Source: Nitrososphaeria archaeon (GTDB lineage: Archaea > Thermoproteota > Nitrososphaeria > JACIWG01). From it: DNA of 64,000 nt. This document shows, piece by piece, positions 18,680 to 52,416 of the stretch (the stretch's first letter is position 1; every line of letters starts with the position of its first letter). The stretch is taken from contig JARVJP010000009.1 of the NCBI GenBank assembly GCA_029776065.1, positions 452,514-516,513 of the forward strand, given 5' to 3'. The notes under the pieces are model-generated. The model made no database searches. It was not told where the DNA came from and saw only the letters and a program-made list of their open reading frames with translations. The position numbers and the translations under genes were made by a program.

Positions 18680-19639
18680 ATGGAAAGAGAGGATGTCTGC
18701 CCACTTTGTAGAAATAAGCTTCTTTTAGTGGATTACGAGCTAGTTTGCAAATCTTGTGGATATGTAATACAAAATGACCCTGGCCCTTCGCAAACAGTTC
18801 TAAAAAAATATTCGTTAAAGACAGACCTTTTAACACAATCTGAGCTTGGGAGTTATATAGGCACTGTTGATTTCAACTCAAAAGGTATTTGTAGTTTAAA
18901 CATTAGAGAAGGCGGATCAAGCATCAGATACCTTAAAGTCATTTCAGACTATGGGCTTAAGTCTCAAAGAAGCAATGAAGAAAACTATTGTATGAGAATA
19001 CTTTCACGAATCTGTGACAAGCTTGAATTACCAGAAACTGTTTTAGTTCAAGCTCTCCAACTTTCACAAGCTCTCCTAGATATTAGAGATAAGGTAAAGA
19101 GCATCACCATACCTGCAATATGCCTTTACTCCTTGATCGTCGCCTGTAAAAAATTACATGTTAATAAAGTAAATACTAAAAATTTAATGAACGTCTTTAA
19201 GGCATATGGTTACCGGATTAACTTATCGTCGCTTATCAAGATATCTACGGAAGTTAGTGTCCCTATGGTTCCAAAATCGTCTGAAGACTACCTTCCAGTA
19301 ACTATACCTGCTATAGTCACCCATCCGATAGTAAAAGATAAATTGATGAAATATTATATGTCTCCAACGGAATATGAAAGAAAGCTATATCGTAGTGCAG
19401 TGTCGATACTCAGTCGCATTGACAAATGCAAAAGAGGAGGGCATAACCCATACGCGTTGGCTGCTACCTCAATTTATGCTGGAGAGATGGCTTTGTCGAA
19501 GATGGAAAAGCGCCGACCGCTATTCTCCCAACATATCGTATCAGAGTCAGTAGAAGTTGCCGAGTACACAATAAGGGAACAGTATGGAGAATTTTTCAGA
19601 GAAGCTCTTCTATCATTCTTGTCGCAGATTAGCTATTAA
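18680..19639 (+). CDS. divergent TFIIB-like transcription factor (TFB paralogue)
   Basis: N-terminal zinc ribbon CPLC...CKSCG followed by two cyclin-like repeats (ITIPAICLYSLIVACK; RGGHNPYALAATSIYAGEMA). Confidence 0.5.
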   Translation: MEREDVCPLCRNKLLLVDYELVCKSCGYVIQNDPGPSQTVLKKYSLKTDLLTQSELGSYIGTVDFNSKGICSLNIREGGSSIRYLKVISDYGLKSQRSNEENYCMRILSRICDKLELPETVLVQALQLSQALLDIRDKVKSITIPAICLYSLIVACKKLHVNKVNTKNLMNVFKAYGYRINLSSLIKISTEVSVPMVPKSSEDYLPVTIPAIVTHPIVKDKLMKYYMSPTEYERKLYRSAVSILSRIDKCKRGGHNPYALAATSIYAGEMALSKMEKRRPLFSQHIVSESVEVAEYTIREQYGEFFREALLSFLSQISY

Positions 19640-20386
19640 CTCAAAATCTTGATATATGGTCCTGTTCACATACTTCCTGTCTAAAAAGTTTTGAATTAGA
19701 GCTGATAAAGACACTTTGTAAAATATTCTTGCTGAATTGTTTTCTAATCGAATCTCCATTAAAGTTATTTTTACTGGTAGGCTTTCCTGAACATAGAGGA
19801 TAGAATTGGTGAGTATACTTTGTAGCGTATCACTAGAGAGATTATGTTTAATAACTTCCCCCTCAAACGCCTTTCTTCCATTATCGATTGACTCAAGGAG
19901 TTTTCGAAAGTCCACTGGATAACTTATAGTAGCTCGTTCTCTGCCAGTATACTTTTCTCCTAGGTTGTTGGTAATGAAGTAAAATATGTTGAGAACAAAT
20001 GTTGTCCCTTGATAGGTAGGTAACCCATTTAACTTATCAACATCAAATCCTCCCAAATCACTGAGAGAGGCCTTCCCAACAACATTAATTATGTAATCAT
20101 CTATTATATATGTGTTTGATATAGTTTTCCCAATTAAGATAGATAGTACCTCATTGTAATTGATTGTTTGCTTCTCGTTTACGATCTTGTCAATGGATTT
20201 CAAAAAACTGATGGCTATATTGACCTCTGACTCATAGAGCTTTATTTCTAGGATCCTCATTCTTGTTAACGATTCGTAATGGTTTAAAATCTGCTTCTTA
20301 GATTCAAGTACGATTGTTGAGCAAATTAGAAGGTTAGAGAGCAATATCAAAACTGTTAGTGTGTTTAAAACCGCTCTCCTACCCAA
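19613..20386 (-). CDS. pilin/pseudopilin-like protein with an N-terminal TM helix (hypothetical)
   Basis: MGRRAVLNTLTVLILLSNLLICSTIV then a soluble domain. It is the last of four same-strand genes upstream of the pilus ATPase. Confidence 0.3.
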   Translation of the reverse strand: MGRRAVLNTLTVLILLSNLLICSTIVLESKKQILNHYESLTRMRILEIKLYESEVNIAISFLKSIDKIVNEKQTINYNEVLSILIGKTISNTYIIDDYIINVVGKASLSDLGGFDVDKLNGLPTYQGTTFVLNIFYFITNNLGEKYTGRERATISYPVDFRKLLESIDNGRKAFEGEVIKHNLSSDTLQSILTNSILYVQESLPVKITLMEIRLENNSARIFYKVSLSALIQNFLDRKYVNRTIYQDFELIANLRQE

Positions 20387-20754
20387 ACTTCAATCACCAA
20401 CTTTTTTTCTAACAAGAAGGTTAGACAGCATAAAGCTTTGTTCTTCAGTTTAAGGTTTTTTGTGGCTATTACTACATCATCGCTTTCTACCTTTATGTAG
20501 ACCGTGTCTTGAAGCCCTTTCTTCGTTAAAAATTCCTCGAGCATTTTATTGGCCTCTCCATTATTTATAGCCTGAATAAGCCTTGGTAGATCATACGTTC
20601 CAAGAAGTTCCATCGCAACCACATATGCTTCATTTCCATTTTCTAATGCGATTTGATAGTCTTGAATGTTGTAGAGGTAAAGATTGTTAAGAATGATCGT
20701 TGTCAAAGTCATTAGTAATAATAAAGCCGAAATCTTATCGAAGAACTTGTACAA
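20365..20754 (-). CDS. pilin/pseudopilin-like protein with an N-terminal TM helix (hypothetical)
   Basis: MYKFFDKISALLLLMTLTTIILNNL... Very AT-rich. Confidence 0.3.
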   Translation of the reverse strand: MYKFFDKISALLLLMTLTTIILNNLYLYNIQDYQIALENGNEAYVVAMELLGTYDLPRLIQAINNGEANKMLEEFLTKKGLQDTVYIKVESDDVVIATKNLKLKNKALCCLTFLLEKKLVIEVWVGERF

Positions 20755-20884
20755 TAGCTTTAAACCCCCTATGCGAATCGTCTAATATCGACTACGATGT
20801 GGAGGATTGTAAATGTGAGAACTAAAAGAACTGTTACTAGAACTATTAAGAATATAACCTCCATAGTGGTGTCCAATATTTTGA

Positions 20885-21253
20885 TCATATGCTTTGCACC
20901 GATATTTTTCCTTTTGACTTGGAGATCAATATTTGCTCTTTAAGCTCAATTGATGAATCATAGAATAAGACTTGGGTATCATATATCACAGTTCTATTAT
21001 CTCCTATATGAAACATTATTTTATGTTCCGATGTTTCTAAAATCGCGCCTCTTTGAAACTTATGTACTATAAAGAGTTTAATAGTCATATTTTCCTTTAA
21101 GTGAAGTGCAGTTTTTTCTATCGCCTTTGCTATGATTTCTCCTTGCGTGTCTATGCATTCTTTGTAGAGATTTTCGTTCAGAGGAGTCATTAAAAGTAGA
21201 ATAAGGAATCCTAAAGTAAGATATAGTGCGAAGTCCCATGCGTTTTCAATCAT
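20885..21253 (-). CDS. pilin/pseudopilin-like protein with an N-terminal TM helix (hypothetical)
   Basis: MIENAWDFALYLTLGFLILLLMT... Confidence 0.3.
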   Translation of the reverse strand: MIENAWDFALYLTLGFLILLLMTPLNENLYKECIDTQGEIIAKAIEKTALHLKENMTIKLFIVHKFQRGAILETSEHKIMFHIGDNRTVIYDTQVLFYDSSIELKEQILISKSKGKISVQSI

Positions 21254-21257
21254 CTCA

Positions 21258-21656
21258 TCAGGCGTCCCGCATCACCAAAATTATTTCGTCCATATAACGT
21301 GAGATTTCAATAACTGTCCTATTACTTTGTTTCCTTTTATCTTTGATTAAGATGTCATAGTCGTAGTTGCCAACATATATGTAACCATCACCCATCTTTA
21401 TCTTTAAATTTTCTCCATCCCATATTAGAGATAACTGACTGGGCAATAGAGTGTAGAGAGTAGCTTCCTGGTTTGTCAGATAAGCCTCCTTTATTCTGGA
21501 ATCAATTTCATCTGCAAGTAGGGCGTACTGTTCATTAACAAGCTTTTGACCTACATTAAAACTTAGACTATACTGTAAAGGATAGAGCGTGGATGCTAAA
21601 ATGAAGCTAATACCTATTATTAGGCATTTCTCAAATATCTCTACCATTTTTTTCAA
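21258..21656 (-). CDS. pilin/pseudopilin-like protein with an N-terminal TM helix (hypothetical)
   Basis: MKKMVEIFEKCLIIGISFILASTLYPL... It is transcribed divergently from the ATPase gene at 21709. Confidence 0.3.
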   Translation of the reverse strand: MKKMVEIFEKCLIIGISFILASTLYPLQYSLSFNVGQKLVNEQYALLADEIDSRIKEAYLTNQEATLYTLLPSQLSLIWDGENLKIKMGDGYIYVGNYDYDILIKDKRKQSNRTVIEISRYMDEIILVMRDA

Positions 21657-21708
21657 GATAATAGGTTATTGGTGTATTTAAGCAGCAACATGTTATCTAT
21701 ATTCATAA

Positions 21709-23259
21709 GTGGGTGTGATGCTCTTCTCTAACTTTTTTAGTGTAAAGAGAAAGCCTGTATTCAGCCAATCACCATTACTGCTTGAACTGTTCACAGAGCG
21801 GTTAGATAGAGCGCAGGTGATCGAAAGTTATCCAGTAGACGTATTTGAAGTATCGCACGTAGTTTTAGATGGTAGGCATTATTATCAAATAACGTGTTCT
21901 AAAGATTTTTTAGAGTTAATGAAAAAGACAAAGATCGTCCTAAATGAAATAGTAGACGATCCCCATATAGTGGAGATCGACTTAATTTCATTCAGCACGA
22001 TCCTTAAACATGTATCTAATATAATATTGCAACATTTAAATAAATACGTTTTAGATGATCATTTAAAAAGGAAGTTAAGTTTAATCTACGCATTTGAATT
22101 TATGAGGCTATCAAGGCTTCTCCCATTGATTCTAGACCATAAGGTCCAAGAGTTTTACTCCGACTCCCCTTGCTCTCGGATATACCTTGATCATGTTGAA
22201 TGGGGGCGTTGCCTAACCAACATACAGCTCACTCAAGAAGAAATTCAAGCCATCACCACCCATATGCAGACCTTTAGTGGTTACTCACTAGATTACACAT
22301 CGAACTCTCTAAAGACTGACTGGCAAATAGATGACATCGTATGTAGAATCTCACTCGATATTGCCCCTCTTTCAGTAACTGGTTTCATATTAGATGCTAG
22401 AAAGATTTCTTCAAAGATTTACACACTACCCGAACTTATTAAATCCGATACTTTATCAAAGGACTTAGCTATCTCTCTTTTGTTCTTCTTGAATCTTGGA
22501 AGAAACTTGACTATCATAGGTGAGACAAACTCAGGTAAAACCACATTGTTGAATTCCTTGGATCTTTTTATATCACCAGAAAAAAGACGGGTTTATGTAG
22601 AAGATGTCCTAGAATCGATGAATTTAATTCATTATAACTATCATCAAGCAAAATACAGAGTTACCCCCTACGACGTAGGTGTAGGTGGAAAGACTAAGAG
22701 CTCTGAAGTTATAAAGATATTGCATCGTTCTCCGAATATTATAGTTCTTGGTGAGATCCAAACTGAGGAGCATAGCCGAGCTCTATTTAGCTCTCTTGCT
22801 TCAGGCATTAGAGGGTTACAGACATTCCATTCAACTTCGGTTGACCAAGCCTTTAGACGTTGGATGTTTTCGCATAAGATAAACCCCGTAAGTTTGAACG
22901 AGTTAGACCTTATTATTTTAATGAATAAGACCTCTAACTTCCCCACAAGAAGGCGAGTTGCTTCAGTTTGTGAGGTGATACCAAGGGATAGTTCAGTATC
23001 AACAGGTTTGCTCCCTCCTTCAATTGACGAAGTTTATACAAGGGATATGAATGGTGAGCTCGTTTGCTTGCGTTCTTTTGATAAAACTCATATGTTTAAA
23101 AAATTATGTGAAGTTTACCCTGAAACCTATTTGAGACAGCTTTATGAAAGAATGTACCAGTTGCTCTCGCCGCTCCTTGATGAGAATATGGACTTTAGCA
23201 CATTAGTAACAGAGGTATCTGATTTATGGTGTAAGTTAAATGAGCAATTTCATATCTGA
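21709..23259 (+). CDS. type II/IV secretion-system ATPase (FlaI/TadA/VirB11 family)
   Basis: Walker A GETNSGKTTLLNSL, an Asp/Glu box region and a His box. 516 aa with a long N-terminal domain. Confidence 0.85.
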   Translation: MGVMLFSNFFSVKRKPVFSQSPLLLELFTERLDRAQVIESYPVDVFEVSHVVLDGRHYYQITCSKDFLELMKKTKIVLNEIVDDPHIVEIDLISFSTILKHVSNIILQHLNKYVLDDHLKRKLSLIYAFEFMRLSRLLPLILDHKVQEFYSDSPCSRIYLDHVEWGRCLTNIQLTQEEIQAITTHMQTFSGYSLDYTSNSLKTDWQIDDIVCRISLDIAPLSVTGFILDARKISSKIYTLPELIKSDTLSKDLAISLLFFLNLGRNLTIIGETNSGKTTLLNSLDLFISPEKRRVYVEDVLESMNLIHYNYHQAKYRVTPYDVGVGGKTKSSEVIKILHRSPNIIVLGEIQTEEHSRALFSSLASGIRGLQTFHSTSVDQAFRRWMFSHKINPVSLNELDLIILMNKTSNFPTRRRVASVCEVIPRDSSVSTGLLPPSIDEVYTRDMNGELVCLRSFDKTHMFKKLCEVYPETYLRQLYERMYQLLSPLLDENMDFSTLVTEVSDLWCKLNEQFHI

Positions 23260-23971
23260 ACTTAGAGAAGCGTATAATTATTGTGGTACGAATTTTAGAA
23301 GACATGTTGTAATGTCGTTTTCTACGTCCATCAGCATCTTTATTGTTTGTATGATACTTCTTCCTCTTTCTGATTTAATATTGAAAACATTTCTATCCTC
23401 TATGTTATTTATTCTATGCTTCTACTTGTTGGTCACATATCCATACCTAAAATATTCCCAACATCGCTTCCTTATTTCTTATTATGGATTCTTAGCCCTC
23501 TCTGATTTGAATGTAATAACAGAGTTTTCCTCACTCTTCCATGCGTGTTATCATCTTCTCTTAGCCGACTACCCAATAATTTCAAACTTGTTCAGGAAGG
23601 TAGTTGTTGACGGTATTAGAGGAGAAGATCTTTTTAAACGCCTAAAGGAAGTAGCATATATTCAACCTTCTACTCAGTTTAAAGAAGGCCTTCTATCTAT
23701 TTTGATCGATTTAAGTCCGGATAAAAGCGGCCGCTTAAAGCTTAATGATGAAGCTATCCAAATTTATAAGAATCTTTCTTCTCAAATAGAAATGAGGTTT
23801 TCTATTATAATGGGGGTGACCTTTTTTGCGCCAATTCTCCTTATATTGTTTATTTCAATGTATGTTCAAACCGTGTTTGAAGTAATCGTGTTCGTTGCTT
23901 TTAGCATCTTCTTTTTGAGTCTAGTTTATATGGTTCTCACTAGAAGTCTTAGCAAACATAAAATGGTGTAA
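23240..23971 (+). CDS. TadB/TadC (GspF/FlaJ-like) polytopic membrane protein, first half
   Basis: Multi-TM protein immediately downstream of the ATPase, overlapping it by 20 nt. Confidence 0.5.
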   Translation: MSNFISELREAYNYCGTNFRRHVVMSFSTSISIFIVCMILLPLSDLILKTFLSSMLFILCFYLLVTYPYLKYSQHRFLISYYGFLALSDLNVITEFSSLFHACYHLLLADYPIISNLFRKVVVDGIRGEDLFKRLKEVAYIQPSTQFKEGLLSILIDLSPDKSGRLKLNDEAIQIYKNLSSQIEMRFSIIMGVTFFAPILLILFISMYVQTVFEVIVFVAFSIFFLSLVYMVLTRSLSKHKMV

Positions 23972-23974
23972 TAA

Positions 23975-24619
23975 TTGACTATTTTTCTATCTGGTAAAAG
24001 GAAGTTTTACAAATTTGATGATATTGCCTTTTTAGAAGAACTATCTAAGAGGCTTGTCGAAGGTTGTAGTTTTGAACGCGCATTGTTTGATACGATCCGA
24101 ACTTTGCCCGACAGGTCTTTAAGGAAAAGAATCATCTACCTCATGATGGGTGAAAAAGCGGACAAGGTTATGAATCATCTACCATTCACCAGTGGCCTTC
24201 CTCTATTTTTGGTCGATTTAGTTAAAGTACGTTCTACTTACGCAGGAAAGATAACAAAAGAACTTACAACTATACTTTTAACGAATAGAAGATACGCGAA
24301 GGAGCGTAATAACCTTTTGAATGTTCTTTATTATCGATGTTTGCTAGTTTCATGTCTTCTCGGTCTAACCATGGCCTTTTTATCGCAACTCTCTCCAATT
24401 TTATCTATATTTTATAATTTTGACCTATCCCTCCATATCTCACATGCTGATTCAATAGGAGTGCTTCCTGCTTCGTTTATTCTAGGTTTGTTTGCCACTT
24501 TAATCCTAAATCTTATTTTTAGGAAAGCAAAGACATTACTCAGCCTTTTCCTATTTTCATTGTTCTTTTATATAGGATATCACCTGTCTTCTCCTATCGC
24601 CCTTATCCTGAATTTATGA
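23975..24619 (+). CDS. TadB/TadC (GspF-like) membrane protein, second half
   Basis: GCSFERALFDTIRTLPDRSLRKRIIYLMMGEKADKV matches the T2SSF cytoplasmic-domain signature (G.sl.eal...GE..G). C-terminal TM helices. Confidence 0.55.
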   Translation: MTIFLSGKRKFYKFDDIAFLEELSKRLVEGCSFERALFDTIRTLPDRSLRKRIIYLMMGEKADKVMNHLPFTSGLPLFLVDLVKVRSTYAGKITKELTTILLTNRRYAKERNNLLNVLYYRCLLVSCLLGLTMAFLSQLSPILSIFYNFDLSLHISHADSIGVLPASFILGLFATLILNLIFRKAKTLLSLFLFSLFFYIGYHLSSPIALILNL

Positions 24620-24654
24620 TGTTGGTGATTAAATAAAGTATCAGCCTGTTTTCT

Positions 24655-24876
24655 TTGATAAAAATGGTCATTAAAAATGCTGGTAAATGTTTTAAGAAGC
24701 ATGCGATACAACTCGTCGAAGAAGCGATATTAATTTCAGTCGCCTTAATCATCTTAAGCTTAGTGATAGGTGGTGTTGAATCCATTTTAGAAAAGGTCTC
24801 ACAGTTGACTGTTTCCCTTTGGGATTCGATCTCAAAGTCTATCGAAGATCTCTTCGGATTTCTTTGGAAATGGTAA
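24655..24876 (+). CDS. Flp-like small pilin (class III signal peptide candidate)
   Basis: 73 aa: a basic stretch (KKHA) then IQLVEEAILISVALIILSLVIGGV, a hydrophobic helix with Glu near its start, similar to Flp/Tad pilins. Confidence 0.35.
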   Translation: MIKMVIKNAGKCFKKHAIQLVEEAILISVALIILSLVIGGVESILEKVSQLTVSLWDSISKSIEDLFGFLWKW

Positions 24877-24906
24877 AGCCTCTATCTCTTTCGAAAGGTT
24901 AGACTA

Positions 24907-26646
24907 ATGATAGAAGTAATCGATAAAAAATTCATTTGTATAAAGAGGAAAGACAAGTTAAGGCTTTATATGGTAATACAGCTTAAACCAAAGCAGCTTG
25001 TTCAAAGCAAGAAAGATTATATAGACGTACCTTCTGCTGAGGTCATAGTTTCCTATAGGAAGGCTATTGGTTTCTTTGAAGGAATTTACAAGGCTAACAT
25101 TCCCTTGCTCTACCTTGTATCAATTTCTTCTAAACCACAATCCGCGATTCAGAAAATAGTTAGCAGAGCCATCAAGAGTAGCGACGAGGAATTAACTGAA
25201 ATGTTCGAACAAGCCGTTTTTTCTATAACTTGGGCATCAGGTTCTTCATCTAAGTTAGACTCACTTAAATCTGACCTTGAACAAAGGTCACGAATTCTTT
25301 GCACAGCTATGAGCATCGGCTACGAGGACTTCACCCCTGAAGTTCTTCGAGGGCGGCACCTTGAAAGTTTTGTAAAGTTCCTGATCGAACCTGATGGTTC
25401 ATTTGAAGATTCAGAAGAGGTAGGAGTGTCTAAGCTCCCTTTCCTTCTACAATATTCTTCTCTCCTGCCAACAACGTCTTCAACAGAAAACATTCCTCCT
25501 TTTTATATACCTAATTTTGATGAATCAGGTTCTGAAGGGATTTGTATAGGTAATGTGAAGTCTTCTACTGGCAAAGCTCATAAATTTTTCTTACAAGAAA
25601 ACGATTTCTCACAACACCTTTGTGTAGTTGGTATGACCGGTTCCGGTAAATCTACCACCTGCAAATTGATTCTATCACAGATGATAAGAATGGGAAGAAA
25701 GGTGTTGGTATTTGATTGGCATAACGAGTACAGTGAATTCTTTAGAGAGATAAATGGTCAAGTACTCAATATGGGAAAGGATAACTCATGTGTACTGAAC
25801 CCTCTCGAAGCTATCAACACAACTGACGTATATGAACATATCGCGCTTATAACTGATATATTTTCTGAAATCTACAGGTTTACAAGCCCTCAGTCTTTTA
25901 CATTTAGAACTGCATTAATGAACCTATATGGTGATAGGAACAGAGGATACTCGCGCTCCCCAATTCTATCGAATTTAGTCGATCAGATAGAATCCACTCC
26001 TATAAAATCTGCTTATGACACAGAAACAAAGATGGCTTTGCTTAGAAGGTTGATCCCACTGACACAAGGGCAAGCAGGTCTGGCTTTGAACGGAGAAAAC
26101 ACAGTTTCAATACAGTCACTTCTTGCAGGTAATGTATGTGTAGAGCTAGGCCATTTCAGAGACTTCGAAACTAGGGCAATATTCACATCCATACTTTTAA
26201 AGATGGTTTACGATTATAGACTACTGTCCGGTCTATCGACACCACCTCATACGACGATAATTGAGGAATCGAGAGCAATTGTACCATCAAGAAGAGTTGA
26301 AGACCCCCCATCAATAGGAGAGAAGATGGTCGCAGAACTAAGGAAGTTTGGTGAATGTATGATCTTTATAGCGCAGTACCCAACCCAAATATCTACTGAG
26401 ATAATAAAGAATTCTGGTTTAAGGATCATCCATAAGATTTCATGGCTTGAAGATATGCGCATACTAAGAGAGACACTTGGGTTAAGTGAGGAACAAGTTA
26501 AGTTCTTATCGTCTTTAAAGACCGGTGAAGCCATTGTAAGTATTGGGCGGATTAGAGCACCTTTCTTGGTATCAGTTGACGCGTCATCAGTAGTAGGAGT
26601 CTGGAAAGATTCGTCTGAGGTCACCTTTCTTTCTAACAAGCTCTAA
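24907..26646 (+). CDS. DUF87-type HerA/VirB4/CedB-like hexameric ATPase
   Basis: Walker A CVVGMTGSGKST followed by VFDWHNEYSEF (D-x-H-x-EY, typical of HerA/DUF87). 579 aa. Confidence 0.65.
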   Translation: MIEVIDKKFICIKRKDKLRLYMVIQLKPKQLVQSKKDYIDVPSAEVIVSYRKAIGFFEGIYKANIPLLYLVSISSKPQSAIQKIVSRAIKSSDEELTEMFEQAVFSITWASGSSSKLDSLKSDLEQRSRILCTAMSIGYEDFTPEVLRGRHLESFVKFLIEPDGSFEDSEEVGVSKLPFLLQYSSLLPTTSSTENIPPFYIPNFDESGSEGICIGNVKSSTGKAHKFFLQENDFSQHLCVVGMTGSGKSTTCKLILSQMIRMGRKVLVFDWHNEYSEFFREINGQVLNMGKDNSCVLNPLEAINTTDVYEHIALITDIFSEIYRFTSPQSFTFRTALMNLYGDRNRGYSRSPILSNLVDQIESTPIKSAYDTETKMALLRRLIPLTQGQAGLALNGENTVSIQSLLAGNVCVELGHFRDFETRAIFTSILLKMVYDYRLLSGLSTPPHTTIIEESRAIVPSRRVEDPPSIGEKMVAELRKFGECMIFIAQYPTQISTEIIKNSGLRIIHKISWLEDMRILRETLGLSEEQVKFLSSLKTGEAIVSIGRIRAPFLVSVDASSVVGVWKDSSEVTFLSNKL

Positions 26647-27177
26647 CCAGTCTATATCTAAACCATCGTACTTCGACCGACCTTTTAGTACAGATAAAGC
26701 CTCTCTAGTAACGTCATCAAGCATCTTCGTAGAGGTATCAATAACATGAATCTTATCTATTCCATACCTTTTAATGGAATCAATATAGGTCGTACCAAGT
26801 ACTTCCGCCCCAACATTCATCAGAACCTTCTTTTCAGCGTATTTCCTCTCTTTTAGCCTTTCCTCAAGAACATAAGGGTTACAACGTAATATAAATACGA
26901 TATCTAAATCCTTTTTTGATGTAACATATGGTAGGAGATGGCCGACGATTATGAATTTATCTTCAATAATCTCTTTCTGCACGATCCTCCTAAGTTTGGC
27001 TGTGTCTGCTATTATTCCATACTTATCTCTACCCGATATCGCTCCCCTTGATATACATAGGTAGTTTAAGTTGACTACTCTAAAGGCTGTCTTTCGAGAG
27101 AGCGCCTTTGCCAAAGTCTTCTTTCCAGTGGCAGGTGAGCCAGTGATCCCTATGCGTTGATACCAACTTTTGTACAA
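26587..27177 (-). CDS. Fap7/AK6-like adenylate kinase family NTPase
   Basis: P-loop GITGSPATGKKTLAKAL near the N-terminus, 196 aa. It overlaps the preceding gene convergently by 60 nt. Confidence 0.65.
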   Translation of the reverse strand: MYKSWYQRIGITGSPATGKKTLAKALSRKTAFRVVNLNYLCISRGAISGRDKYGIIADTAKLRRIVQKEIIEDKFIIVGHLLPYVTSKKDLDIVFILRCNPYVLEERLKERKYAEKKVLMNVGAEVLGTTYIDSIKRYGIDKIHVIDTSTKMLDDVTREALSVLKGRSKYDGLDIDWLELVRKKGDLRRIFPDSYY

Positions 27178-27180
27178 AAT

Positions 27181-27348
27181 TTAATCTACTGTCTGTTGGC
27201 GGATGAATGTTGGTGAATACTCGATGACCAACACTGAGTGACACTTTTGGCATACTCCGTGAAGGTATATTGACTTAATCTTAGTACCCTTTAAGTCGAG
27301 TTGTTGATCGATAACGATTTCAGTTGAACCACAAACGGGGCATTTCAT
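27181..27348 (-). CDS. small zinc-ribbon protein (55 aa)
   Basis: Not in the ORF track. My translation is MKCPVCGSTEIVIDQQLDLKGTKIKSIYLHGVCQKCHSVLVIEYSPTFIRQQTVD, with CxxC...CxxC. Confidence 0.35.
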   Translation of the reverse strand: MKCPVCGSTEIVIDQQLDLKGTKIKSIYLHGVCQKCHSVLVIEYSPTFIRQQTVD

Positions 27349-27454
27349 ATATTCCACCACCTTCCTTGGCTATCCTCATGTATATCAAATTTTTAATCTT
27401 TTCCCTCGATCTAATTTTAATCAAAAAAGTATTTTAACATGATTTCTCCCTTCA

Positions 27455-35600: not shown

Positions 35601-35697
<97 letters not shown>

Positions 35698-40149: not shown

Positions 40150-41079
40150 TCATAATAAATCTTCTTGTAATGCTTTATGTCTAAGTACTTCCCTTCTTGT
40201 TGGGAACCCATTTGGCCCTTTATATCTAATCTTTAACCCAGCAGCTATGTTCGCTATCTTTGCAGCCTCCGCTGCGTCGTAACCCCTCAAATATTCTGAT
40301 AGGAAGGCGGCTCCGAAGACATCGCCTGCCCCAGTAGGGTCTTCAACTGCTACGTTAATTGTAGGGACTTCGATTATCGTGTTTTTACTTGCTATGGTAA
40401 CTTTTTCTTTTCCTCGTGTAACTATTCCTACACTAACTCCTATGTCTTTTAACCACTCCATTACGTCCTTAACCTCCATATTGGAAGCTTGGAATTCATC
40501 ATTTCCTATCTTTACTATATCCACTAATTCAAATACAGGCTCGAGTTCTCCTTGGTTAAAAGTTAGTTCAATCCTTCCCTCTTCTCCTATATTTCGCATT
40601 AAACCCTGTGGGTCTAACATCAAAGTTATTTCTTTCCTCCTGAGTTCCTTTAATAATTCTAAATCTACTTCACCCATTATCGGTGCGATGTAGAAGGCTT
40701 TACTGTCAAAGTACTCTCTGGGCAACTCTTTAAAGAGAAGCTTTGGTGTAGTGTTAAAACACTTTTGCCTTCTATTGCCTTCATCGTCATAGGTGTTCTC
40801 AAACGCTAAGGTTCTTTGAGGTAATCTTCTTAAACCTCTAAAATCAATCCCTCTAATTCTACAAAATTGTACTGCTTCTTCATAGTAGTCGAAACCTATC
40901 TGCGAAAACAGAGCTGTCCTGTTTCCGAATAGTGTGAAAATGCTACCTGAGTAGACAGGTGCACCGCCTAAGCTATTTGATATCTGCTCTCCCAGACAGG
41001 TGTTCACGTCTATTGAATAGTTTCCGACTAATATGACGTCGAATAAAGTTGCATCCTTAGGTTTTCTATTTCTAGGCAT
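40150..41079 (-). CDS. PfkB-family sugar/nucleoside kinase
   Basis: C-terminal DPTGAGDVFGAAF motif and N-terminal GG region. Confidence 0.8.
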   Translation of the reverse strand: MPRNRKPKDATLFDVILVGNYSIDVNTCLGEQISNSLGGAPVYSGSIFTLFGNRTALFSQIGFDYYEEAVQFCRIRGIDFRGLRRLPQRTLAFENTYDDEGNRRQKCFNTTPKLLFKELPREYFDSKAFYIAPIMGEVDLELLKELRRKEITLMLDPQGLMRNIGEEGRIELTFNQGELEPVFELVDIVKIGNDEFQASNMEVKDVMEWLKDIGVSVGIVTRGKEKVTIASKNTIIEVPTINVAVEDPTGAGDVFGAAFLSEYLRGYDAAEAAKIANIAAGLKIRYKGPNGFPTRREVLRHKALQEDLL

Positions 41080-41269
41080 CCTAGAATCGTTTAAAGGTGT
41101 ACTTATTTTAAGATAAACCTTCCTCTAGTTCATTGTTGATAAAAATTTTTATAGAGTGGCTATTATCATTTTAATTGTAATATATTTTTTTTTAATTTTC
41201 TGTTTTTAATGGGTTCCCTCATCAAAAGCTTAAATAATATCAAGCTAATATTTTCATGGGTAGAATTAA

Positions 41270-42622
41270 TTGGCTCGTATACTACCAGGTGTTGAAATAC
41301 GTGTAGTTAAAGAAATTGTTCCTCAACAACTTCGTCCCGCCGGTGTCGTAGGCTTATTGGGGACGGCTGAGAAGGGTATTCCATTTGAAGCCGTTCCAGT
41401 AACCAGCTATAGAGAGTATATGGAAAAGTTCGGTTCCAACACTGACTATACGCTAACAAAGGACGCTAGGCTCGCATTTTTAAACGGGGTATCCCAAGTA
41501 TTCGCTGTGAGGGTGGAAGGGGAGCCAGGTAAGCCAGCAGAGATTGGTTTAAAGGACGCTAATGGCAACCCCTCCGTGCTGTTGAAGGCTAGAAGCCCAG
41601 GGCCTGTTGGAAACAATATTGAAGTCGTAGTTATGAGAGGCTCGCAGGAGAACTTGATTCGTCTAGAACTCAGTGATGGAAAGATATCTGAGGCCTTTGA
41701 CGACTTGACAATGGAGGCAGCGAATGAGAGAAATCTTGTTTCATTCTTGAACTCTAAGTCTAAATTGGTTCTAGCAGAAGACGTGAGTAAGAAGAAGTTC
41801 CCTGCGAACACCCCCGCTCCTTTAGAAGCTAAGCTTGCAGGAGGCACTCCTGAGACAATATCAAAGAGCTCTGTGGAAAAGGCCCTTCAAGCCTTTGAAC
41901 TAGAACCAGATATCGATATTGTCTTGGCTGCGGACATAAGTGACCCTGCAGTTCATGCGCTTGTTGACGCCCACTGCAAGAACATGAGTAAAGATGCAAT
42001 GAATAGGATTGGAGTGGGCACAGTGGCTCCTGGTGAAAGCGTTAAGGATATCGTTAAGAGGACAGAGGCGCTTGCAAGCGATAGGTTTGTCTTAGTCGCA
42101 CCTTATGGTGTGGCAGGTGCGGTTGCAGGCCTGCTGAGTAGTCTATCATATTACGAATCACCTACCTTCAAAACTCTGACAGGCATCGATAGTGTAGAGA
42201 AAAGATACTCTCCATCAGAGTTAACGGAACTAGTAAAGGCAGGTGTCTTAGCTGTAGAAATGAGGAGAGGGCGTGGTATAATTGTAGAGAAAGGTATCTC
42301 GACAAGTCAGGAGCAGATCAGTGTAACAAGGGTGGCAGACCGTGCTGTAAGAGGGGTGAAAAACGTAGCTGAAAACTTCATTGGTACATTAAATAGTCCA
42401 GGAGGGAGAACTGCTTTAAAAGAGAAGATAACAGAGTTCCTACTCTCTATGGAAAAGGAGGGTTCTCTTGTGCCTAGTGTTGATGGTAAGAAGCCTCCTT
42501 TCATAGTTGATGTTTACTCTTCAGAAATGGACTTCGCGCAAGGAATAGTTAGAGTAGATGTTGCTGTTAGGCCTGTGAGAGCTATCGATTACGTGTATGC
42601 CACGATAACAGTGGAGGTTTGA
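41270..42622 (+). CDS. contractile tail sheath protein (P2 FI / CIS sheath)
   Basis: N-terminus ILPGVEIRVVKE...PAGVVGLLGTAEKGIPFEAVPVTSYREYMEKFG is the hallmark sheath N-terminal signature. 450 aa. Confidence 0.85.
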   Translation: MARILPGVEIRVVKEIVPQQLRPAGVVGLLGTAEKGIPFEAVPVTSYREYMEKFGSNTDYTLTKDARLAFLNGVSQVFAVRVEGEPGKPAEIGLKDANGNPSVLLKARSPGPVGNNIEVVVMRGSQENLIRLELSDGKISEAFDDLTMEAANERNLVSFLNSKSKLVLAEDVSKKKFPANTPAPLEAKLAGGTPETISKSSVEKALQAFELEPDIDIVLAADISDPAVHALVDAHCKNMSKDAMNRIGVGTVAPGESVKDIVKRTEALASDRFVLVAPYGVAGAVAGLLSSLSYYESPTFKTLTGIDSVEKRYSPSELTELVKAGVLAVEMRRGRGIIVEKGISTSQEQISVTRVADRAVRGVKNVAENFIGTLNSPGGRTALKEKITEFLLSMEKEGSLVPSVDGKKPPFIVDVYSSEMDFAQGIVRVDVAVRPVRAIDYVYATITVEV

Positions 42623-42633
42623 GGTGAAGAAAG

Positions 42634-43035
42634 GTGTCTAATCCGTTTATTGCGTCTGCAAACGTTAGTGTAGTCAAAGTTGACGGGGAGGTCATACCGG
42701 GTGTACAGTCAATCGAATGGAAGATAATAAGAAATAGGCAGAACGTGTACAATATTGGTTCACAAGAGAGAGTTGGTGTTGACGTTGGCCCACTGTATGT
42801 TCATGGGCTGATCAGGGTTAGATCAACTTCAACGAAATTAGATGAGCTTCTACTGAAGGAGGTTAAAGACCTTAAGCCTGTTCAGATTCTTGTCCAAACC
42901 ATGTTAAGGACGGCGAAGGTTAAGGATATATCATTCGACGACGCATACGTTGAAGAAAAGACTTTCTCTATCGACTCTAATGGTGTTGGCATTAGCGTCT
43001 ACACCTTCACAGCAACTAGAGTGAGAGAAACCTAG
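42634..43035 (+). CDS. tail tube protein (P2 FII / CIS tube)
   Basis: 133 aa, VVKVDGEVIPGVQSIEWKIIRNRQNVYNIGSQER tube-family pattern. It sits immediately after the sheath gene. Confidence 0.7.
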   Translation: MSNPFIASANVSVVKVDGEVIPGVQSIEWKIIRNRQNVYNIGSQERVGVDVGPLYVHGLIRVRSTSTKLDELLLKEVKDLKPVQILVQTMLRTAKVKDISFDDAYVEEKTFSIDSNGVGISVYTFTATRVRET

Positions 43036-43037
43036 CT

Positions 43038-43409
43038 ATGCCTAAGAAGCTGTCAAAGGACTTGATCCTTGAGGGAGCGAATAGGAGGGAGACGGTATAC
43101 CTTAGAGAATATGATGCTGAAGTCGTAATAAAACCATTGACAGACGGCGAACTATCAAAGATCTTTTCATCCATAGGAAGTGTTCCTCTAAAAGAAGATG
43201 GAACTCCTGACATAGGGAAGATCGATATCTCAAAGAACTTCGAAATCCTCCGCCTCGCTGCAGTCGAAGGGCTCGTTGAGCCAAAGCTCGCTCTAAAAGA
43301 ACTAGAAGCGATGAAGTTTGGTGTCCCCGAGTTCATAGGTATGAAGGTCTTCGAGATCAGTGGCGTAGTTAGAGGTACTGAGGAGGCTAAAAAAAAAGTT
43401 AGAAGTTGA
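43038..43409 (+). CDS. tail assembly chaperone-like protein (P2 gpE analogue)
   Basis: 123 aa acidic protein between the tube and the tape measure. It ends just after an A9 run, with a long open +1 frame beyond. Confidence 0.4.
   Translation: MPKKLSKDLILEGANRRETVYLREYDAEVVIKPLTDGELSKIFSSIGSVPLKEDGTPDIGKIDISKNFEILRLAAVEGLVEPKLALKELEAMKFGVPEFIGMKVFEISGVVRGTEEAKKKVRS
43389..43397 (+). promoter_or_regulatory. A9 homopolymer: candidate programmed frameshift site (or indel hotspot) at the end of the chaperone gene
   Basis: GCT AAA AAA AAA GTT AGA AGT TGA. The +1 frame is open for 71 codons (43399..43614, including LCLDCGY), and its TGA overlaps the GTG start of the next gene. Confidence 0.4.
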
Positions 43410-43610
43410 AAGCTTCGTAAGAAGCCAGGAAGGCCAAGAACTCGCCACACTATGTCTTGACTGTGGGTACAAGCTTGCCGAGAGTCCCAGAGACTTAACT
43501 CGAGATCAAATTCTTTTTTTGATAGCTGCTCTGGCATTCCGTGCAGAACAGTTAGCGCAGGCAAAGTTGTCTGCACAGGGAATAACAAGAATCAACATAT
43601 CAGAAGGGGG

Positions 43611-45359
43611 GTGAGGAATGAAAGGTTGGAAATTAGGGAAATATTAAGTTCGCTGATTAAAGAAATAAATAGGGTTTTAGCTACGCTTGGGGGAGTACTG
43701 TATAAACCTATAAACAACATCTTCTTGTCTTGTTTGAACATCCTTAAGGTTAGTAGTGACGTTTTCAATAAAATTGCCGATTTCGGTGTCTACGTTTTTC
43801 CCCCTTATTTAAGAGCTATCCAATATAACCTTTTTGAGGAAGGGGTAGAGGTTAAACCGTCTTCATCTCAGCTTATTCAACCGAGTTCGGTTCTACAACC
43901 TCATATTAGCTACTCTCTTGAATTTATTAAGAAGTTGCAACCAACAAGGATAAGAGGTAAAGTGAAAGCTGGTGTTGAAGAGTCTTCAATCTCCTATTAT
44001 CCTTTGACAACGTTTTACGATGATCTTACTGCTCTCACCACTCCTGTCACACTAGTTACTAGTAAAATGGTTAAATCAAAACCTTATACTCTAAAGGCTC
44101 AACAAAGGATGATTAAGGAGCAGATTATTGCTCAAGAAGTTACTCCATCTGTTAAGACGGTTTCAGACTCATTTACCGTGTTAAGAGAAGTTTTTAGAGT
44201 ACTAAGCCTGAAACCAGCTATGATACAGTATGGAAAGAAAACTGCTCTAGGACATACTGATGGAATATATTATGAGATTCTCCCAGAGACGTCTAAAGGC
44301 TTTGATCTAGCGCTTACTTCGGTAATAAGTGCTATCAGTCTACCTTTATATTTGATGTCTGAAGCTGAGTTGTATAAGGTTAAAGGTGAGGCACTACCTT
44401 CTGAGACTGAACTAATTCGCCATATTGAATATTCTTCTGTTCCAGCTTACAGGCCAGTTCTATCCCCTCCTTTAACAGATCGAGACCACCTTTTGATACC
44501 TTTGTTTATATTAGCTTTAAGCTGGGTATCTAAATATATTAAATCACCCCTTCAGCCTCTCCAAAAGAGTTACTTGGACTACATCACTTACTCTAAACAA
44601 GCACTTGATGTTGCAGTTAAACCATCTGGTTTAGGGCCGTCTACTGTCCCCCTATTTATACCACATATTCAAAGTCGAATCGAGTCTTATTTATATTCCA
44701 AAGAGAGTTTAAGCGCTATAGAACAGGCTTACTCGGTCACTCAAAGAGTAGTACCCAGTTTCCCAACATCTAGTGTATTTACTTACTCCCCTGTCAAACA
44801 GCTTACTGAATTTATGGTAGATCTTCAGCCTCTTCTTTTAGGGGCCTCCCATGTCCCATATTCGGACCAACTTGAAGCACATCCTTTGAGTATGTATAAA
44901 GTAAGCGTGTCTTCTATAGCTCTATCAGATTTTCACCCATTTAGACATATGCCTGCTTCCATGGTTAAAGCTTTGATGTTTACTAGACATGCTTTGAATA
45001 AAGTTTTACCATCAAGTTATTTGATGACAGTAGACGGATTTGTCATTAAACAAATAGATATAGTGAGGTTAGAGACCTCATCTCCTCTAGTGACCTCGTC
45101 TATCGAATACACGAGGACGATACGGGAATTTAGGATGGCTGAATTAGAAGCTGAACAGGAAATTTTAGCCTCCAAATCTTACCCATCTTTGAGTACTGAG
45201 AAACCTCTGCTCACCCCATCCTATCTCATACCAGAAGTCCAAAACATCTTTCAAATCACCGTTCCAGAGGAGTCAGATTTAGATCTAAAAGAGTTAGAAA
45301 GAAAGATTACGCGCATTCTTAATGAGCAAGTTCGGAGGTATTATGGTTACCTAAGTTGA
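43611..45359 (+). CDS. tape-measure-like protein (P2 gpT analogue)
   Basis: 582 aa, Ser/Leu/Pro-rich with no enzymatic motifs. It is positioned after the chaperone as in P2 and R-pyocins. Confidence 0.4.
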   Translation: MRNERLEIREILSSLIKEINRVLATLGGVLYKPINNIFLSCLNILKVSSDVFNKIADFGVYVFPPYLRAIQYNLFEEGVEVKPSSSQLIQPSSVLQPHISYSLEFIKKLQPTRIRGKVKAGVEESSISYYPLTTFYDDLTALTTPVTLVTSKMVKSKPYTLKAQQRMIKEQIIAQEVTPSVKTVSDSFTVLREVFRVLSLKPAMIQYGKKTALGHTDGIYYEILPETSKGFDLALTSVISAISLPLYLMSEAELYKVKGEALPSETELIRHIEYSSVPAYRPVLSPPLTDRDHLLIPLFILALSWVSKYIKSPLQPLQKSYLDYITYSKQALDVAVKPSGLGPSTVPLFIPHIQSRIESYLYSKESLSAIEQAYSVTQRVVPSFPTSSVFTYSPVKQLTEFMVDLQPLLLGASHVPYSDQLEAHPLSMYKVSVSSIALSDFHPFRHMPASMVKALMFTRHALNKVLPSSYLMTVDGFVIKQIDIVRLETSSPLVTSSIEYTRTIREFRMAELEAEQEILASKSYPSLSTEKPLLTPSYLIPEVQNIFQITVPEESDLDLKELERKITRILNEQVRRYYGYLS

Positions 45360-45889
45360 TAGGTGGTAGCTTGAATATAAAACTTGATGATATAGATCTT
45401 GTGAAAAGAGTTGACGAGGAAGGCGTTAGGGAGGTTAGGAGCATACTCAACGTTACAATTTTGGGTAAACGTCATGTGAAAGAGTTTAAAGTACCAGGGC
45501 TAGAAGGTAACGTCTTTCAAGACTTAGGACGTGATTCTTTGACGATAATAGTAGAAGGGTTACTTACTGGTCTAAACTCAAAGGATACTTTTAAAGAGAT
45601 GAACTCTAAGTTTAAACTCGGTCGACCGATACCCTTTATCACCGATATTCCATCTTTGACTGAAATATCGGAAGTTGTAGTTGAAGGTTTTAAGGCGAAG
45701 GTTGTCAGCGGGATGTCTTTAAACTATTGGTATCTCCTAACACTTAAGGAGCATAAGAGTAGTCCTCCGAAGCAATCTGAAGTGCCTAGTCAAGAAGAGA
45801 CAGCAAGAGAGGAAACTAAAGAAGCTATAAAGCAGATCCGTAAGGAAGTAGAGTTAAAGTCGGAGGGAAAGGCGCCACTAAAAGGGTGA
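45356..45889 (+). CDS. tail protein, gpU-like by position (hypothetical)
   Basis: 177 aa, overlapping start/stop with its neighbours. Assigned by synteny only. Confidence 0.3.
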   Translation: MIGGSLNIKLDDIDLVKRVDEEGVREVRSILNVTILGKRHVKEFKVPGLEGNVFQDLGRDSLTIIVEGLLTGLNSKDTFKEMNSKFKLGRPIPFITDIPSLTEISEVVVEGFKAKVVSGMSLNYWYLLTLKEHKSSPPKQSEVPSQEETAREETKEAIKQIRKEVELKSEGKAPLKG

Positions 45890-46980
45890 AGGAAGTTGGA
45901 GGGATCTATTCTTTCCGATTAAGTTGGAGAATGGTGACGCAAATGCTCTTTCCAAATTATAAAGTTGAAGTAGGATCTGAAAGCTTTAACCCTGATTCGC
46001 AGTCGATCGTTGGGTTTAATATCAAGTTGGGCTTAGGCCCAAAGGTGGATAGTTTCGAGCTCTTGTTGGTGAAGGATGATCGGAGCTTAAAGATTACTCG
46101 AAACGATTTCGTCAACGTATTTTTAGGGTACGAAGATGATATGGAGAAGGTGTTTTCTGGTTTAGTTGAAACAGTAGAGAAAGGTATCTCGACTGTTAGG
46201 GTTTTTGGGCTAGCTTTCTCAGTGAACTTCCTTTTGTTTAGGATAAATAAGGTGTACCTTAATCAAACGGCAGGGCAGATCGTTTCCGATCTCCTCTCTT
46301 CCGTGAAGCAAAGGATGAAAGAAGTTAAGTGGTTTCCTGTTGAAGAAGGGCAGATAATGGATGGCTTAAGCTTCCCAGTTTACGTTGTTGATAACCGTCT
46401 AAGTGCCTACGAACACATAGAGAAGCTTGCTAAACGATCTAATTACGTATTTTATATATCGTCTGAAAATAAGCTCTTTTTTAAAAAATTTGAAGAAGGC
46501 GAAGTACAAGTACTTAAATACGGAAGGGACATTATTGAAGTGAACGTGACTAAAATGGTTGGTCAATACGATTCGGTTATTGTTTACGGTGAAAGCCCAT
46601 CTAGTTGGTCTGGTCGTGAAACCTACCATTGGCTATCTAAACGAGAGGTTTTTGGGCTTGCCTCTTATAGTTCCACCGAAGGCCAGAAGGAGGTTTCAAG
46701 GAGGCACTTGCTTACAATGCAAGACTCAGTTATAAAGGATGGCGACACAGCATTTACCACAGCAGGAAATGTAGCAAATATTGTTAACAGCGAACTTCAG
46801 GTAGTATTAAAAGTTGTGGGGAGCTCTAAGTTAAAGGTTAACGATACCGTAAAGGTGGAGGGATTAGAAGGTGATGCTTTTAATTCCCAGTTAAGAATTG
46901 TTGAAGTCGAGCATTACTTAAGTAGGGTCGATGGGTTTACTTCGATTATAACATGTGTGCCGGAGGAGAAAGCGTTATGA
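45886..46980 (+). CDS. baseplate hub protein, P2 gpD-like by position
   Basis: 364 aa, a similar size to gpD, in the U-D-V order. Confidence 0.4.
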   Translation: MKEVGGIYSFRLSWRMVTQMLFPNYKVEVGSESFNPDSQSIVGFNIKLGLGPKVDSFELLLVKDDRSLKITRNDFVNVFLGYEDDMEKVFSGLVETVEKGISTVRVFGLAFSVNFLLFRINKVYLNQTAGQIVSDLLSSVKQRMKEVKWFPVEEGQIMDGLSFPVYVVDNRLSAYEHIEKLAKRSNYVFYISSENKLFFKKFEEGEVQVLKYGRDIIEVNVTKMVGQYDSVIVYGESPSSWSGRETYHWLSKREVFGLASYSSTEGQKEVSRRHLLTMQDSVIKDGDTAFTTAGNVANIVNSELQVVLKVVGSSKLKVNDTVKVEGLEGDAFNSQLRIVEVEHYLSRVDGFTSIITCVPEEKAL

Positions 46981-51232: not shown

Positions 51233-51239
51233 GGTAAAG

Positions 51240-51911: not shown

Positions 51912-51913
51912 CT

Positions 51914-52411: not shown

Positions 52412-52416
52412 CTGCT

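Follow-up and report, generated by a model that had tools for sequence, protein, structure and literature searches.

Within a 64,000-nt stretch of the genome of a Nitrososphaeria archaeon (assembly GCA_029776065.1, contig JARVJP010000009.1, positions 452,514–516,513; hereafter the window), a locus at 18680–26646 was identified in which genes predicted to specify an Epd/Tad-type type IV filament (TFF) are followed by the gene of an ATPase whose best-matching family is CedD. The ATPase gene has been inherited together with the pilus genes as part of a single compact operon, and this linkage is not due to chance. We favor reading the locus as a chromosomal pilus-dependent system for DNA import or exchange, at a probability of roughly 0.55, and we infer its substrate (DNA), the direction of transfer, and its regulation by DNA damage. 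This reading is best supported because three lines of evidence can be taken together: two Sulfolobales species cannot import DNA without CedD (PMC11823120, PMC11868833), natural transformation of Methanococcus maripaludis, whose DNA transporter is unknown, requires Epd pili (PMC10133366), and Mrr-type nuclease genes follow the ATPase gene in some relatives. No description of a VirB4/CedD-class ATPase inside an archaeal type IV filament operon was found in the literature searched, and the newest archaeal TFF survey reports the ATPase as single-copy per system (10.64898/2026.04.22.720090). The module is a natural union of type IV filament and type IV secretion-class parts, which are of known kinds and newly combined.

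The module begins with a divergent TFB paralogue (18680–19639, + strand), which is followed by four pilin-like genes on the minus strand (19613–21656) and a divergent intergenic region of 52 nt (21657–21708). On the plus strand, the gene for a T2SSE/PilB/FlaI-family pilus assembly ATPase (21709–23259) then precedes those for two putative half-size TadB/TadC-like platform proteins, m243 (23240–23971) and m214 (23975–24619), the Flp/Epd-type minimal pilin s73 (24655–24876), a 30-nt spacer (24877–24906), and the CedD-like ATPase (24907–26646). These genes had been noted in an earlier sequence-only reading of the window, which was made without database searches and proposed an Epd/Tad-like pilus coupled to a Ced-class ATPase. 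All of the open reading frames (ORFs), motifs, and spacings that it described are present, including the 579-aa DUF87 ATPase exactly 30 nt after the pilin gene on the same strand and the TFB paralogue immediately upstream, and the proposed coupling was borne out by the relatives.

Species-representative genomes were scanned, resulting in 77 loci (numbered L001 onward) in which genes were labeled by iterative hidden Markov models (HMMs). The pilus ATPase was present in 50 of the 59 informative loci, which were required to have at least 3.6 kb of upstream flank, and the TFB paralogue was located upstream in 40 of the 52 loci whose flank reached 7 kb or more, as well as in L083, L086, and L088. 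The s73 gene was found in 59/71 loci and is always directly upstream of the CedD-like ATPase gene, including in Marsarchaeota and Bathyarchaeia. Modules were recovered from Nitrososphaeria, Conexivisphaerales (L086), Bathyarchaeia (L082, L084, L055), Marsarchaeota (L072–74), a Brockarchaeota-like Thermoproteota metagenome-assembled genome (MAG; L083), and an unplaced lineage (L088). In Thermoprotei, the ATPase was found by itself. The hits weighed for ammonia oxidizers were all MAGs, the high-GC ones lying within the GC range of Gagatemarchaeaceae. The order of TFB paralogue, minor pilins, and then pilus ATPase, platform, platform, pilin, and CedD-like ATPase recurs and is kept in dozens of genomes at only about 40% protein identity. 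The median junctions along the plus-strand genes are −4, −4, +32, and +24 nt, and the last of these, between s73 and the CedD-like ATPase, does not exceed 50 nt in 85% of 61 loci.

In the window, the spacer between s73 and the ATPase contains a Shine-Dalgarno-like GAAAGGT before the ATPase start codon; because the spacer is only 30 nt long and carries this site, co-transcription of the two genes is implied. A terminator-like hairpin (TCGAAGATCTCTTCGG followed by ATTTCTTTGG; 24842–24866, + strand) lies inside the 3′ end of the s73 gene, before the ATPase gene. Judged by its pattern, it could attenuate read-through and leave the pilin in excess. The divergent intergenic region is A/T-rich with TATA-like TATTTAAG and TATCTATATT, and must hold the putative promoters of both operons. 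A scan for sigma-70-type promoters and terminators, which is inapplicable to archaea, gave fewer sites than shuffled controls.

The 579-aa ATPase matched Pfam DUF87 (73.7 bits, 3e-20) in the P-loop motor domain and C-terminal region (25522–26646, + strand) and contains the motifs GMTGSGKST and DWHNEY. Its best NCBIfam match was CedD (NF053655; 170.5 bits, 5.7e-50, model positions 199–525 of 527), leading the next family by about 100 bits. The HerA models scored 42–68 bits (cut-offs 800–970), the VirB4-type models at most 66 bits (TIGR00929 50.6 against a cut-off of 643, TraC 40.7, TrbE 18), and CedB 14. CedD was also the best match for every relative tested (124–248 bits, none reaching 600), with HerA at no more than 76, VirB4 at no more than 66, and CedB at no more than 50. 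Genuine CedD proteins from Sulfurisphaera and Acidianus scored 623 and 649 bits on the CedD model. The window ATPase could be aligned with genuine CedD over the entire motor domain (26% identity over 355 aa, E = 3e-34), and the two have DWH.EY, Walker A and B, and the C-terminal motifs in common; among 18 homologues, no variation was seen in the Walker A and B motifs or in other catalytic columns. A third-iteration DUF87 HMM also caught the T2SSE ATPase via shared P-loop features; genes were labeled according to their highest score, and NCBIfam was used to re-check key cases.

An AlphaFold2 (AF2) model of the full-length ATPase (pLDDT 75) matched HerA and VirB4 about equally. The N-terminal domain (NTD; residues 1–205, 24907–25521, + strand) was modeled with a pLDDT of 72.7 and a pTM of 0.69 and is predicted to have an alpha/beta fold, not a barrel. 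When this domain was compared with the PDB using Foldseek, the top 12 matches were all TrwK/VirB4 of R388 (best E = 1.3e-4, TMq 0.51), with no HerA among them, and the NTD of CedD has been reported to have a VirB4-NTD-like fold (PMC11868833). The orthologues from Bathyarchaeia and Brockarchaeota-like genomes carry two N-terminal transmembrane (TM) helices, which gives the TM, NTD, ATPase order published for CedD. The Nitrososphaeria form has lost these helices, which are also absent in some CedD homologues (PMC11823120).

The sequence-only reading had placed the ATPase in the VirB4/Ced class and had considered that it might instead be housekeeping HerA or adjacent to the pilus genes by chance; both possibilities were examined, and neither held. 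Housekeeping HerA was rejected on the scores given above, on an NTD that is no HAS-barrel, and on neighbors that are pilus genes and a kinase gene; no NurA/Mre11/Rad50 context was found around the ATPase. A conjugative ATPase of the VirB4/TrbE/TraC type was likewise rejected, as the cut-offs were not reached, no VirB2/3/6/8-type partner genes were detected, and the similarity is at the level of the fold. The proposed class therefore stands in that the protein is not HerA, with CedD, below its cut-off, and not CedB or VirB4 proper as the closest family.

The pilus assembly ATPase (516 aa, with an alternative ATG start at 21718) exceeds the Pfam T2SSE cut-off (PF00437; 42.3 bits against 24.9, E = 5e-11), scores 80 bits with the NCBIfam model for FlaI, 61 with BasE, and 60 with TadA, and contains GETNSGKTT, in agreement with the FlaI/TadA-family assignment made from the sequence. 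Among its homologues, the Walker A motif is present in 50/50 and the His box in 49/50. The gene for m243 (243 aa) overlaps that of the pilus ATPase, and m214 (214 aa) contains EGCSFERALFD...MMGEKADKV and matches NCBIfam ComGB below the cut-off (E = 1.7e-5). The orthologue of m243 in L002 matches Pfam T2SSF with 20.6 bits (E = 4.6e-4), under the cut-off of 25.2, and the orthologues of both proteins in L082 have precomputed weak T2SSF matches. An hhalign comparison of m243 with m214 gave a weak match of only 24 columns at 44% probability. In the window, both members of the split TadB/TadC pair proposed earlier are themselves below the Pfam T2SSF cut-off; their size, topology, and position agree with platform proteins. 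No gene for a class III signal peptidase (PibD/EppA, Peptidase_A24) was found in the 64-kb window by tblastn. A Peptidase_A24 prepilin peptidase gene is encoded within the homologous module of L082 and probably within that of L084. The outgroup modules also differ in other respects: their pilus ATPases are longer (610–707 aa, with a UCP018868-like region), and extra cytoplasmic genes are located upstream of the pilus ATPase gene (L082:4170–4893, L084:2510–3901, L083:4900–5139). These encode two small coiled-coil or helical proteins, to which L084 adds a CbiA/MinD-like ATPase, and are absent from the Nitrososphaeria module.

The s73 protein is the best-conserved protein of the locus. Its motif, basic-[GAS][AVST][QP][LMI][IVL]EE[AG][LI]L, is present in 61/62 family members, and in the family layout a basic N-terminus and this motif lead into a hydrophobic helix, which a GG turn separates from an amphipathic helix with a terminal aromatic motif. 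Cleavage is predicted at KKHA|IQLVEEAILI..., which would leave a mature protein of ~54 aa with one hydrophobic and one amphipathic helix. At motif level, the layout is that of Flp/Epd-type prepilins, with the glutamate at +5.

The four minus-strand proteins have one N-terminal hydrophobic helix each, as described in the sequence-only reading. The largest, p257 (19613–20386, − strand; 257 aa), begins with MGRRA|VLNTLTVLILL..., an archaeal class III signal, and has an extracellular domain of ~230 aa; its RR[AG]|[VI] motif and subsequent hydrophobic helix recur in positional homologues, making it a candidate tip or minor pilin. The small pilin-like p129 (20365–20754, − strand; 129 aa; N-terminus MYKFFDK..., family motif M[RQ][FL][IV]D[IV]) has positional homologues in relatives and outgroups. 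The small N-terminally anchored p122 (20885–21253, − strand; 122 aa) was followed by iterative HMM through 44 loci and has the family motif MP[SA]E/S.[VI][ES]. Its N-terminus is kept in Bathyarchaeia and Brockarchaeota-like loci (LPSETVE, LPVETAE), and the pilin-like N-termini of both the p129 and p122 families are conserved into these genomes. With strict regular expressions, the p257, p129, and p122 motifs were counted in few loci (15–22 of 42) owing to over-extended ORFs and strict filters, and these motifs rest on inspected examples and not on the counts. The fourth protein, the TadE/Flp-like minor pilin p132 (21258–21656, − strand; 132 aa), has its probable start codon in the ATG at 21647 and would then be 129 aa long (MVEIFEKCLII...), as in the public gene call. 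The family N-terminus [MVL][VTA]E[IL][ILF]E[YK], of E5-Y6 type, followed by a hydrophobic helix, was found in 39/42 loci, consistent with a TadE/Flp-like N-terminus with essentially no leader. Neither p257 nor p129 belongs to a curated family in Pfam or NCBIfam, and none of the locus pilins matched a curated pilin family, the class III signal being assigned at motif level only.

From these sequence features, the pilus half is predicted to be a type IV filament system of the Epd/Tad type, made up of a Flp-like pilin and four pilin-like proteins together with a T2SSE ATPase and the products of two single-domain platform genes. It was provisionally assigned to the Epd-like/Tad class ("System 1") because two platform genes and a short pilin without a globular domain define this class (PMC6668835; PMC4858521; 10.64898/2026.04.22.720090), with the qualification that subsystem 4A likewise has two platform genes.

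The TFB paralogue (319 aa) has a Zn ribbon and a cyclin-like core (Pfam TFIIB and Zn_Ribbon_TF) and scores 39.6 bits with NCBIfam TFIIB, far under the cut-off of 384; the 3′ end of its gene overlaps the 3′ end of the p257 gene, the first on the minus strand. It is part of the conserved module and a candidate dedicated regulator, TFIIB homologues being the commonest regulators known in archaeal pilus loci (PMC4858521). The Zn ribbon of the paralogue can be aligned with that of a TFB3-type protein encoded beside genuine CedD. In Sulfurisphaera ohwakuensis (L085, AP031374.1:6001–9992), genuine cedD, a thermosome subunit gene, and the gene for a 186-aa Zn-ribbon factor are immediate neighbors, with S17e and Urm1 on one side of cedD and the thermosome subunit, the 186-aa factor, tRNA endonuclease, HisRS, proteasome, Rpo8, Lsm, and arcTGT on the other. 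We read the 186-aa protein as TFB3 because of its length, its content of a Zn_Ribbon_TF domain only, and the positions of its cysteines (3, 6, 22, and 25), which match the sites of the published C3S/C25T mutant. TFB3 binds the promoter of SiRe_1715 (cedD) and activates ups, ced, and SiRe_1715 after DNA damage, and the C3S/C25T mutant was studied in the same work (PMC6101594).

The neighborhood of S17e, Urm1, thermosome, Lsm, and arcTGT is common to genuine CedD, the window module, and L083/L084. In S. acidocaldarius and S. islandicus, tfb3 (saci_0665 and SiRe_1717, respectively) presumably lies two genes away from cedD. No mention of the adjacency of cedD and a TFB3-type gene, which places the regulator beside a target gene, was found in the literature searched. 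Because genuine CedD lies in the same housekeeping neighborhood beside a TFB3-type factor, the window ATPase seems to correspond in position to CedD and the TFB paralogue to TFB3, and Sulfolobales appear to have lost the pilus genes or moved them elsewhere. A bolder and tentative proposal, which we think less likely to be right than wrong, is that the module is the ancestral, intact pilus-plus-Ced apparatus, with filament and CedD-type motor as one complex under TFB control, of which the Sulfolobales regulon would be a rearranged remnant; the CedD-like ATPase would then be the motor that drives pilus-dependent DNA uptake from the cytoplasm in archaea, working without ComEC and possibly without a VirB6-type channel.

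If the locus imports or exchanges DNA, the TFB paralogue would switch on both divergent operons, and the pilins would be processed by a class III signal peptidase encoded elsewhere. The PilB-like ATPase and the platform would build a thin s73 filament, with the minor pilins forming its tip or priming it, and the filament would bind DNA or a partner cell. The CedD-like ATPase, as a hexamer at the membrane base of the machine, would then pull DNA into the cytoplasm for recombination. Docking could occur via the two TM helices of the ATPase in the Bathyarchaeia and Brockarchaeota-like forms and presumably through s73 or the platform in Nitrososphaeria. In two Bathyarchaeal-type modules, a gene of ~116 aa with the restriction-endonuclease-fold domain Mrr_cat follows the ATPase gene on the same strand (L082:11990–12343, L084:10752–11099); no Mrr_cat gene was found in the window by tblastn.

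Several observations weigh against DNA transfer. The window ATPase has no TM segment. Its 170 bits do not reach the 600-bit CedD equivalog cut-off, and in a rough neighbor-joining tree without support values the pilus-linked ATPases form a clade apart from genuine CedD, so that the transfer of function from genuine CedD over such a distance is uncertain. VirB4-class ATPases act on pilins too, and not on DNA alone. No CedA/VirB6-like channel, CedB/VirB4, or VirB2-like pilin was found in the module or the 64-kb window, and hence no DNA conduit there; of the CedA-like polytopic protein and VirB2-like pilin for which a search had been suggested, neither turned up. A profile search of s73 against Pfam and PDB sequences returned nothing meaningful and no match to the CedA1/TedC or Flp entries, so that no similarity to a known pilin family was detected and a VirB2-like identity, though conceivable, lacks support. 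The two halves can also be found apart. L048 (9763–11635), a natural deletion variant, has an intact 564-aa CedD-like ATPase with the pilus genes and s73 missing, and the Bathyarchaeon L063 has only s73 and the ATPase, with no pilus genes nearby. Lastly, conserved adjacency in this region is not by itself proof of shared function, because the AAA_18 kinase gene downstream is a conserved neighbor as well.

The chief rival holds that the CedD-like ATPase is a second filament motor, either a VirB4-like pilin dislocase or an ATPase that retracts or assembles s73, and that the pilus serves adhesion, aggregation, or motility instead of DNA transport. The s73 and ATPase genes are the tightest pair of the module and stay together in Marsarchaeota and in the Bathyarchaeon without pilus genes nearby, and the ATPase NTD resembles that of VirB4, which in type IV secretion systems (T4SSs) contacts small membrane proteins, VirB4 itself taking part in pilus biogenesis. 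A second motor would also suit a module without a DNA channel gene and archaea that are without PilT and twitch without a dedicated retraction ATPase (10.64898/2026.04.22.720090). It is at odds, however, with the phenotype of the cedD deletion in Sulfolobus, in which DNA import is abolished and Ups-pilus-mediated aggregation is unaffected (PMC11823120), and with the ATPase of L048, which is intact after the loss of the pilus genes and s73. The Mrr-type nuclease genes point to a nucleic-acid substrate, and archaeal TFF systems are described with one ATPase each. On balance we consider a second pilus motor unlikely. Less probable still is that the pilus genes and the ATPase are independent and are neighbors through an old, slowly rearranging syntenic block, with the ATPase working in cytoplasmic repair or segregation. 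The AAA_18 kinase, S17e, Lsm, arcTGT, and PAC2 are indeed also conserved in the block, CedD occurs without pilus genes in Sulfolobales and L087, and the halves are separable in L048 and L063. The ATPase gene is nonetheless on the same strand as the pilus genes, with short or overlapping junctions and the Shine-Dalgarno-like site, whereas the kinase gene is convergent. The two TM helices that anchor the outgroup ATPases argue against a purely cytoplasmic role, and the order of pilin and then ATPase is invariant across classes while genes outside the module shuffle.

The reading of the locus as a conjugative or mobile element gained by horizontal transfer, or as a HerA-type system of anti-phage defense, is largely refuted, and we give it very little weight. 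Its attraction lies in base composition, in weak Pfam matches of the ATPase to TrwB/TraG-type coupling proteins, and in the occurrence of HerA-like ATPases in defense, PADLOC HerA models scoring up to 70 bits. As the sequence-only reading had observed, the locus is AT-rich: the GC content of the pilus genes is 0.354, compared with 0.412 in the remaining window, and they form its lowest-GC 5.2-kb stretch, about 2.5 standard deviations under the mean. Across 30 genomes, however, the GC deviation of the pilus genes tracks each genome's own bias (mean difference +0.007), the pilus genes being AT-richer than their flanks in AT-rich genomes only and GC-richer in GC-rich genomes. Because the sign reverses, the low GC reflects the compositional drift of genes that evolve fast and not a foreign origin, and horizontal transfer is rejected as its cause. 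The flanks are also of a housekeeping kind, with beta-CASP, PAC2, arcTGT, and Lsm upstream and the AAA_18 kinase, HtrA, Tat, TIM, Sua5, Cgi121, S17e, and histone downstream, and many of these genes adjoin the module in other classes too. No integrase, relaxase, att-like repeat, or tRNA junction was found at the locus borders, the pilus-linked ATPase clade roughly mirrors organismal groups in the tree described above, and no relatives were found on IMG/VR viral contigs. A defense system was rejected since the PADLOC HerA matches are fragments only and the locus has no effector partner such as Sir2 or DUF4297. Of the DNA-transfer or conjugation-like machinery proposed from the sequence, we therefore keep DNA transfer, as the probable reading, and drop the conjugative or acquired island, given the housekeeping neighborhood.

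Comparison with known systems places the module between several of them. CedD/TedD (Saci_0667, SiRe_1715; NF053655) shares the HerA/VirB4-class motor, the VirB4-like NTD, the chromosomal neighborhood, and a TFB paralogue nearby. Sulfolobales CedD, however, stands alone and Thermoproteales TedD is found with VirB2/VirB4/VirB6-like Ted genes, whereas the window ATPase is in an operon with type IV pilus genes; it also belongs to a separate clade, lacks the TM helix in its Nitrososphaeria form, and has no CedA or CedB nearby. The Epd pilus of M. maripaludis, TFF System 1 (clade 1), and the bacterial Tad system (T4cP) share one PilB-like ATPase, a split platform with one predicted T2SSF domain each, a very short major pilin without a globular domain, and several minor pilins; a MinD/CbiA-like ATPase and a prepilin peptidase occur in addition in the outgroup modules. 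Differences are the order of ATPase, platform, platform, and pilin, the occurrence in TACK lineages, and the VirB4/CedD-class ATPase in the operon, which is in neither archaeal TFF survey (PMC4858521; 10.64898/2026.04.22.720090).

The TFB3-Ups-Ced regulon of Sulfolobales likewise brings together a TFB paralogue with a type IV pilus and a Ced-type ATPase, but its components are dispersed, its TFB3 is truncated (186 aa without a cyclin core, as opposed to the full-length 319 aa here), and the Ups pilus has larger pilins with only one platform gene. The bacterial Com pseudopilus or type IV pilus (T4P) with ComEC/ComFA and Thermus transjugation (T4P with the HerA-like TdtA/HepA) are alike in logic, with a filament that captures DNA and a cytoplasmic ATPase that drives translocation; unlike these, the module has no ComEC or ComFA homologues, uses a VirB4/HerA-class motor, and holds the whole system in one operon. 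VirB4 of bacterial T4SSs is alike in NTD and motor folds and in the small membrane-protein gene directly upstream, which recalls the virB2-virB3-virB4 order. The window protein is ~200 residues shorter, however, homologues of VirB3, VirB6, VirB8, and VirB2 were not detected, and it is accompanied by predicted T2SSF platform proteins and class III pilins.

Downstream of the module, the AAA_18 (Fap7/adenylate-kinase-like) gene (26587–27177, − strand) overlaps the 3′ end of the ATPase gene by 60 nt in a convergent arrangement that most loci retain irrespective of class; the gene is probably a housekeeping neighbor. The next ORF encodes a 59-aa Zn-ribbon protein with two CxxC pairs (27181–27360, − strand), and the corresponding position in L001 and L080 is occupied by a small ORF of 55–83 aa without a Pfam match. 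Rearrangements were seen in some relatives. The deletion variant L048 has the order H+-PPase, deoxyhypusine synthase, an 85-aa N-terminal TFB remnant, ATPase, and kinase gene. In several Nitrososphaerales loci (L060, L061, L065, L066, L067; L038:18585–19911), a second, C-terminal fragment of the ATPase gene (residues ~266–560, no Walker A) is located directly before the AAA_18 gene, with the intact gene 7–20 kb away; in L038, a P-type ATPase and two Na+/H+ exchangers are encoded in the intervening 7 kb. The arrangement suggests that cargo was inserted into the 3′ region of the ATPase gene and that this region was duplicated. Elsewhere in the window, an Rfam tRNA match (35606–35690, + strand; 34.9 bits, model positions 6–65) for which ARAGORN makes no call may be an intron-containing or otherwise atypical archaeal tRNA. 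The cumulative GC skew has its minimum near 41 kb and rises steadily thereafter (~41000–60000); because this coincides with a long run of plus-strand genes (41270–56029), it is probably a gene-strand effect and not a replication landmark.

How DNA crosses the archaeal membrane is an open question, and no ComEC homologue or motor is known for Epd-dependent transformation (PMC10133366), and the module names a concrete candidate motor that is physically tied to an Epd-type pilus. Among the Ced-type ATPases, CedD and TedD have been reported in Crenarchaeota only (PMC11868833, PMC11823120); the loci described here extend the range of Ced-type ATPases to Thaumarchaeota, Bathyarchaeia, Brockarchaeota-like archaea, and Marsarchaeota, groups that are abundant in soils, peat, sediments, and hot springs and whose evolution is shaped by recombination. 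Conexivisphaerales is a module-bearing order with a cultured member. The position that the module has in common with genuine CedD and its TFB3-type factor suggests an origin for the DNA-damage regulon of Sulfolobales.

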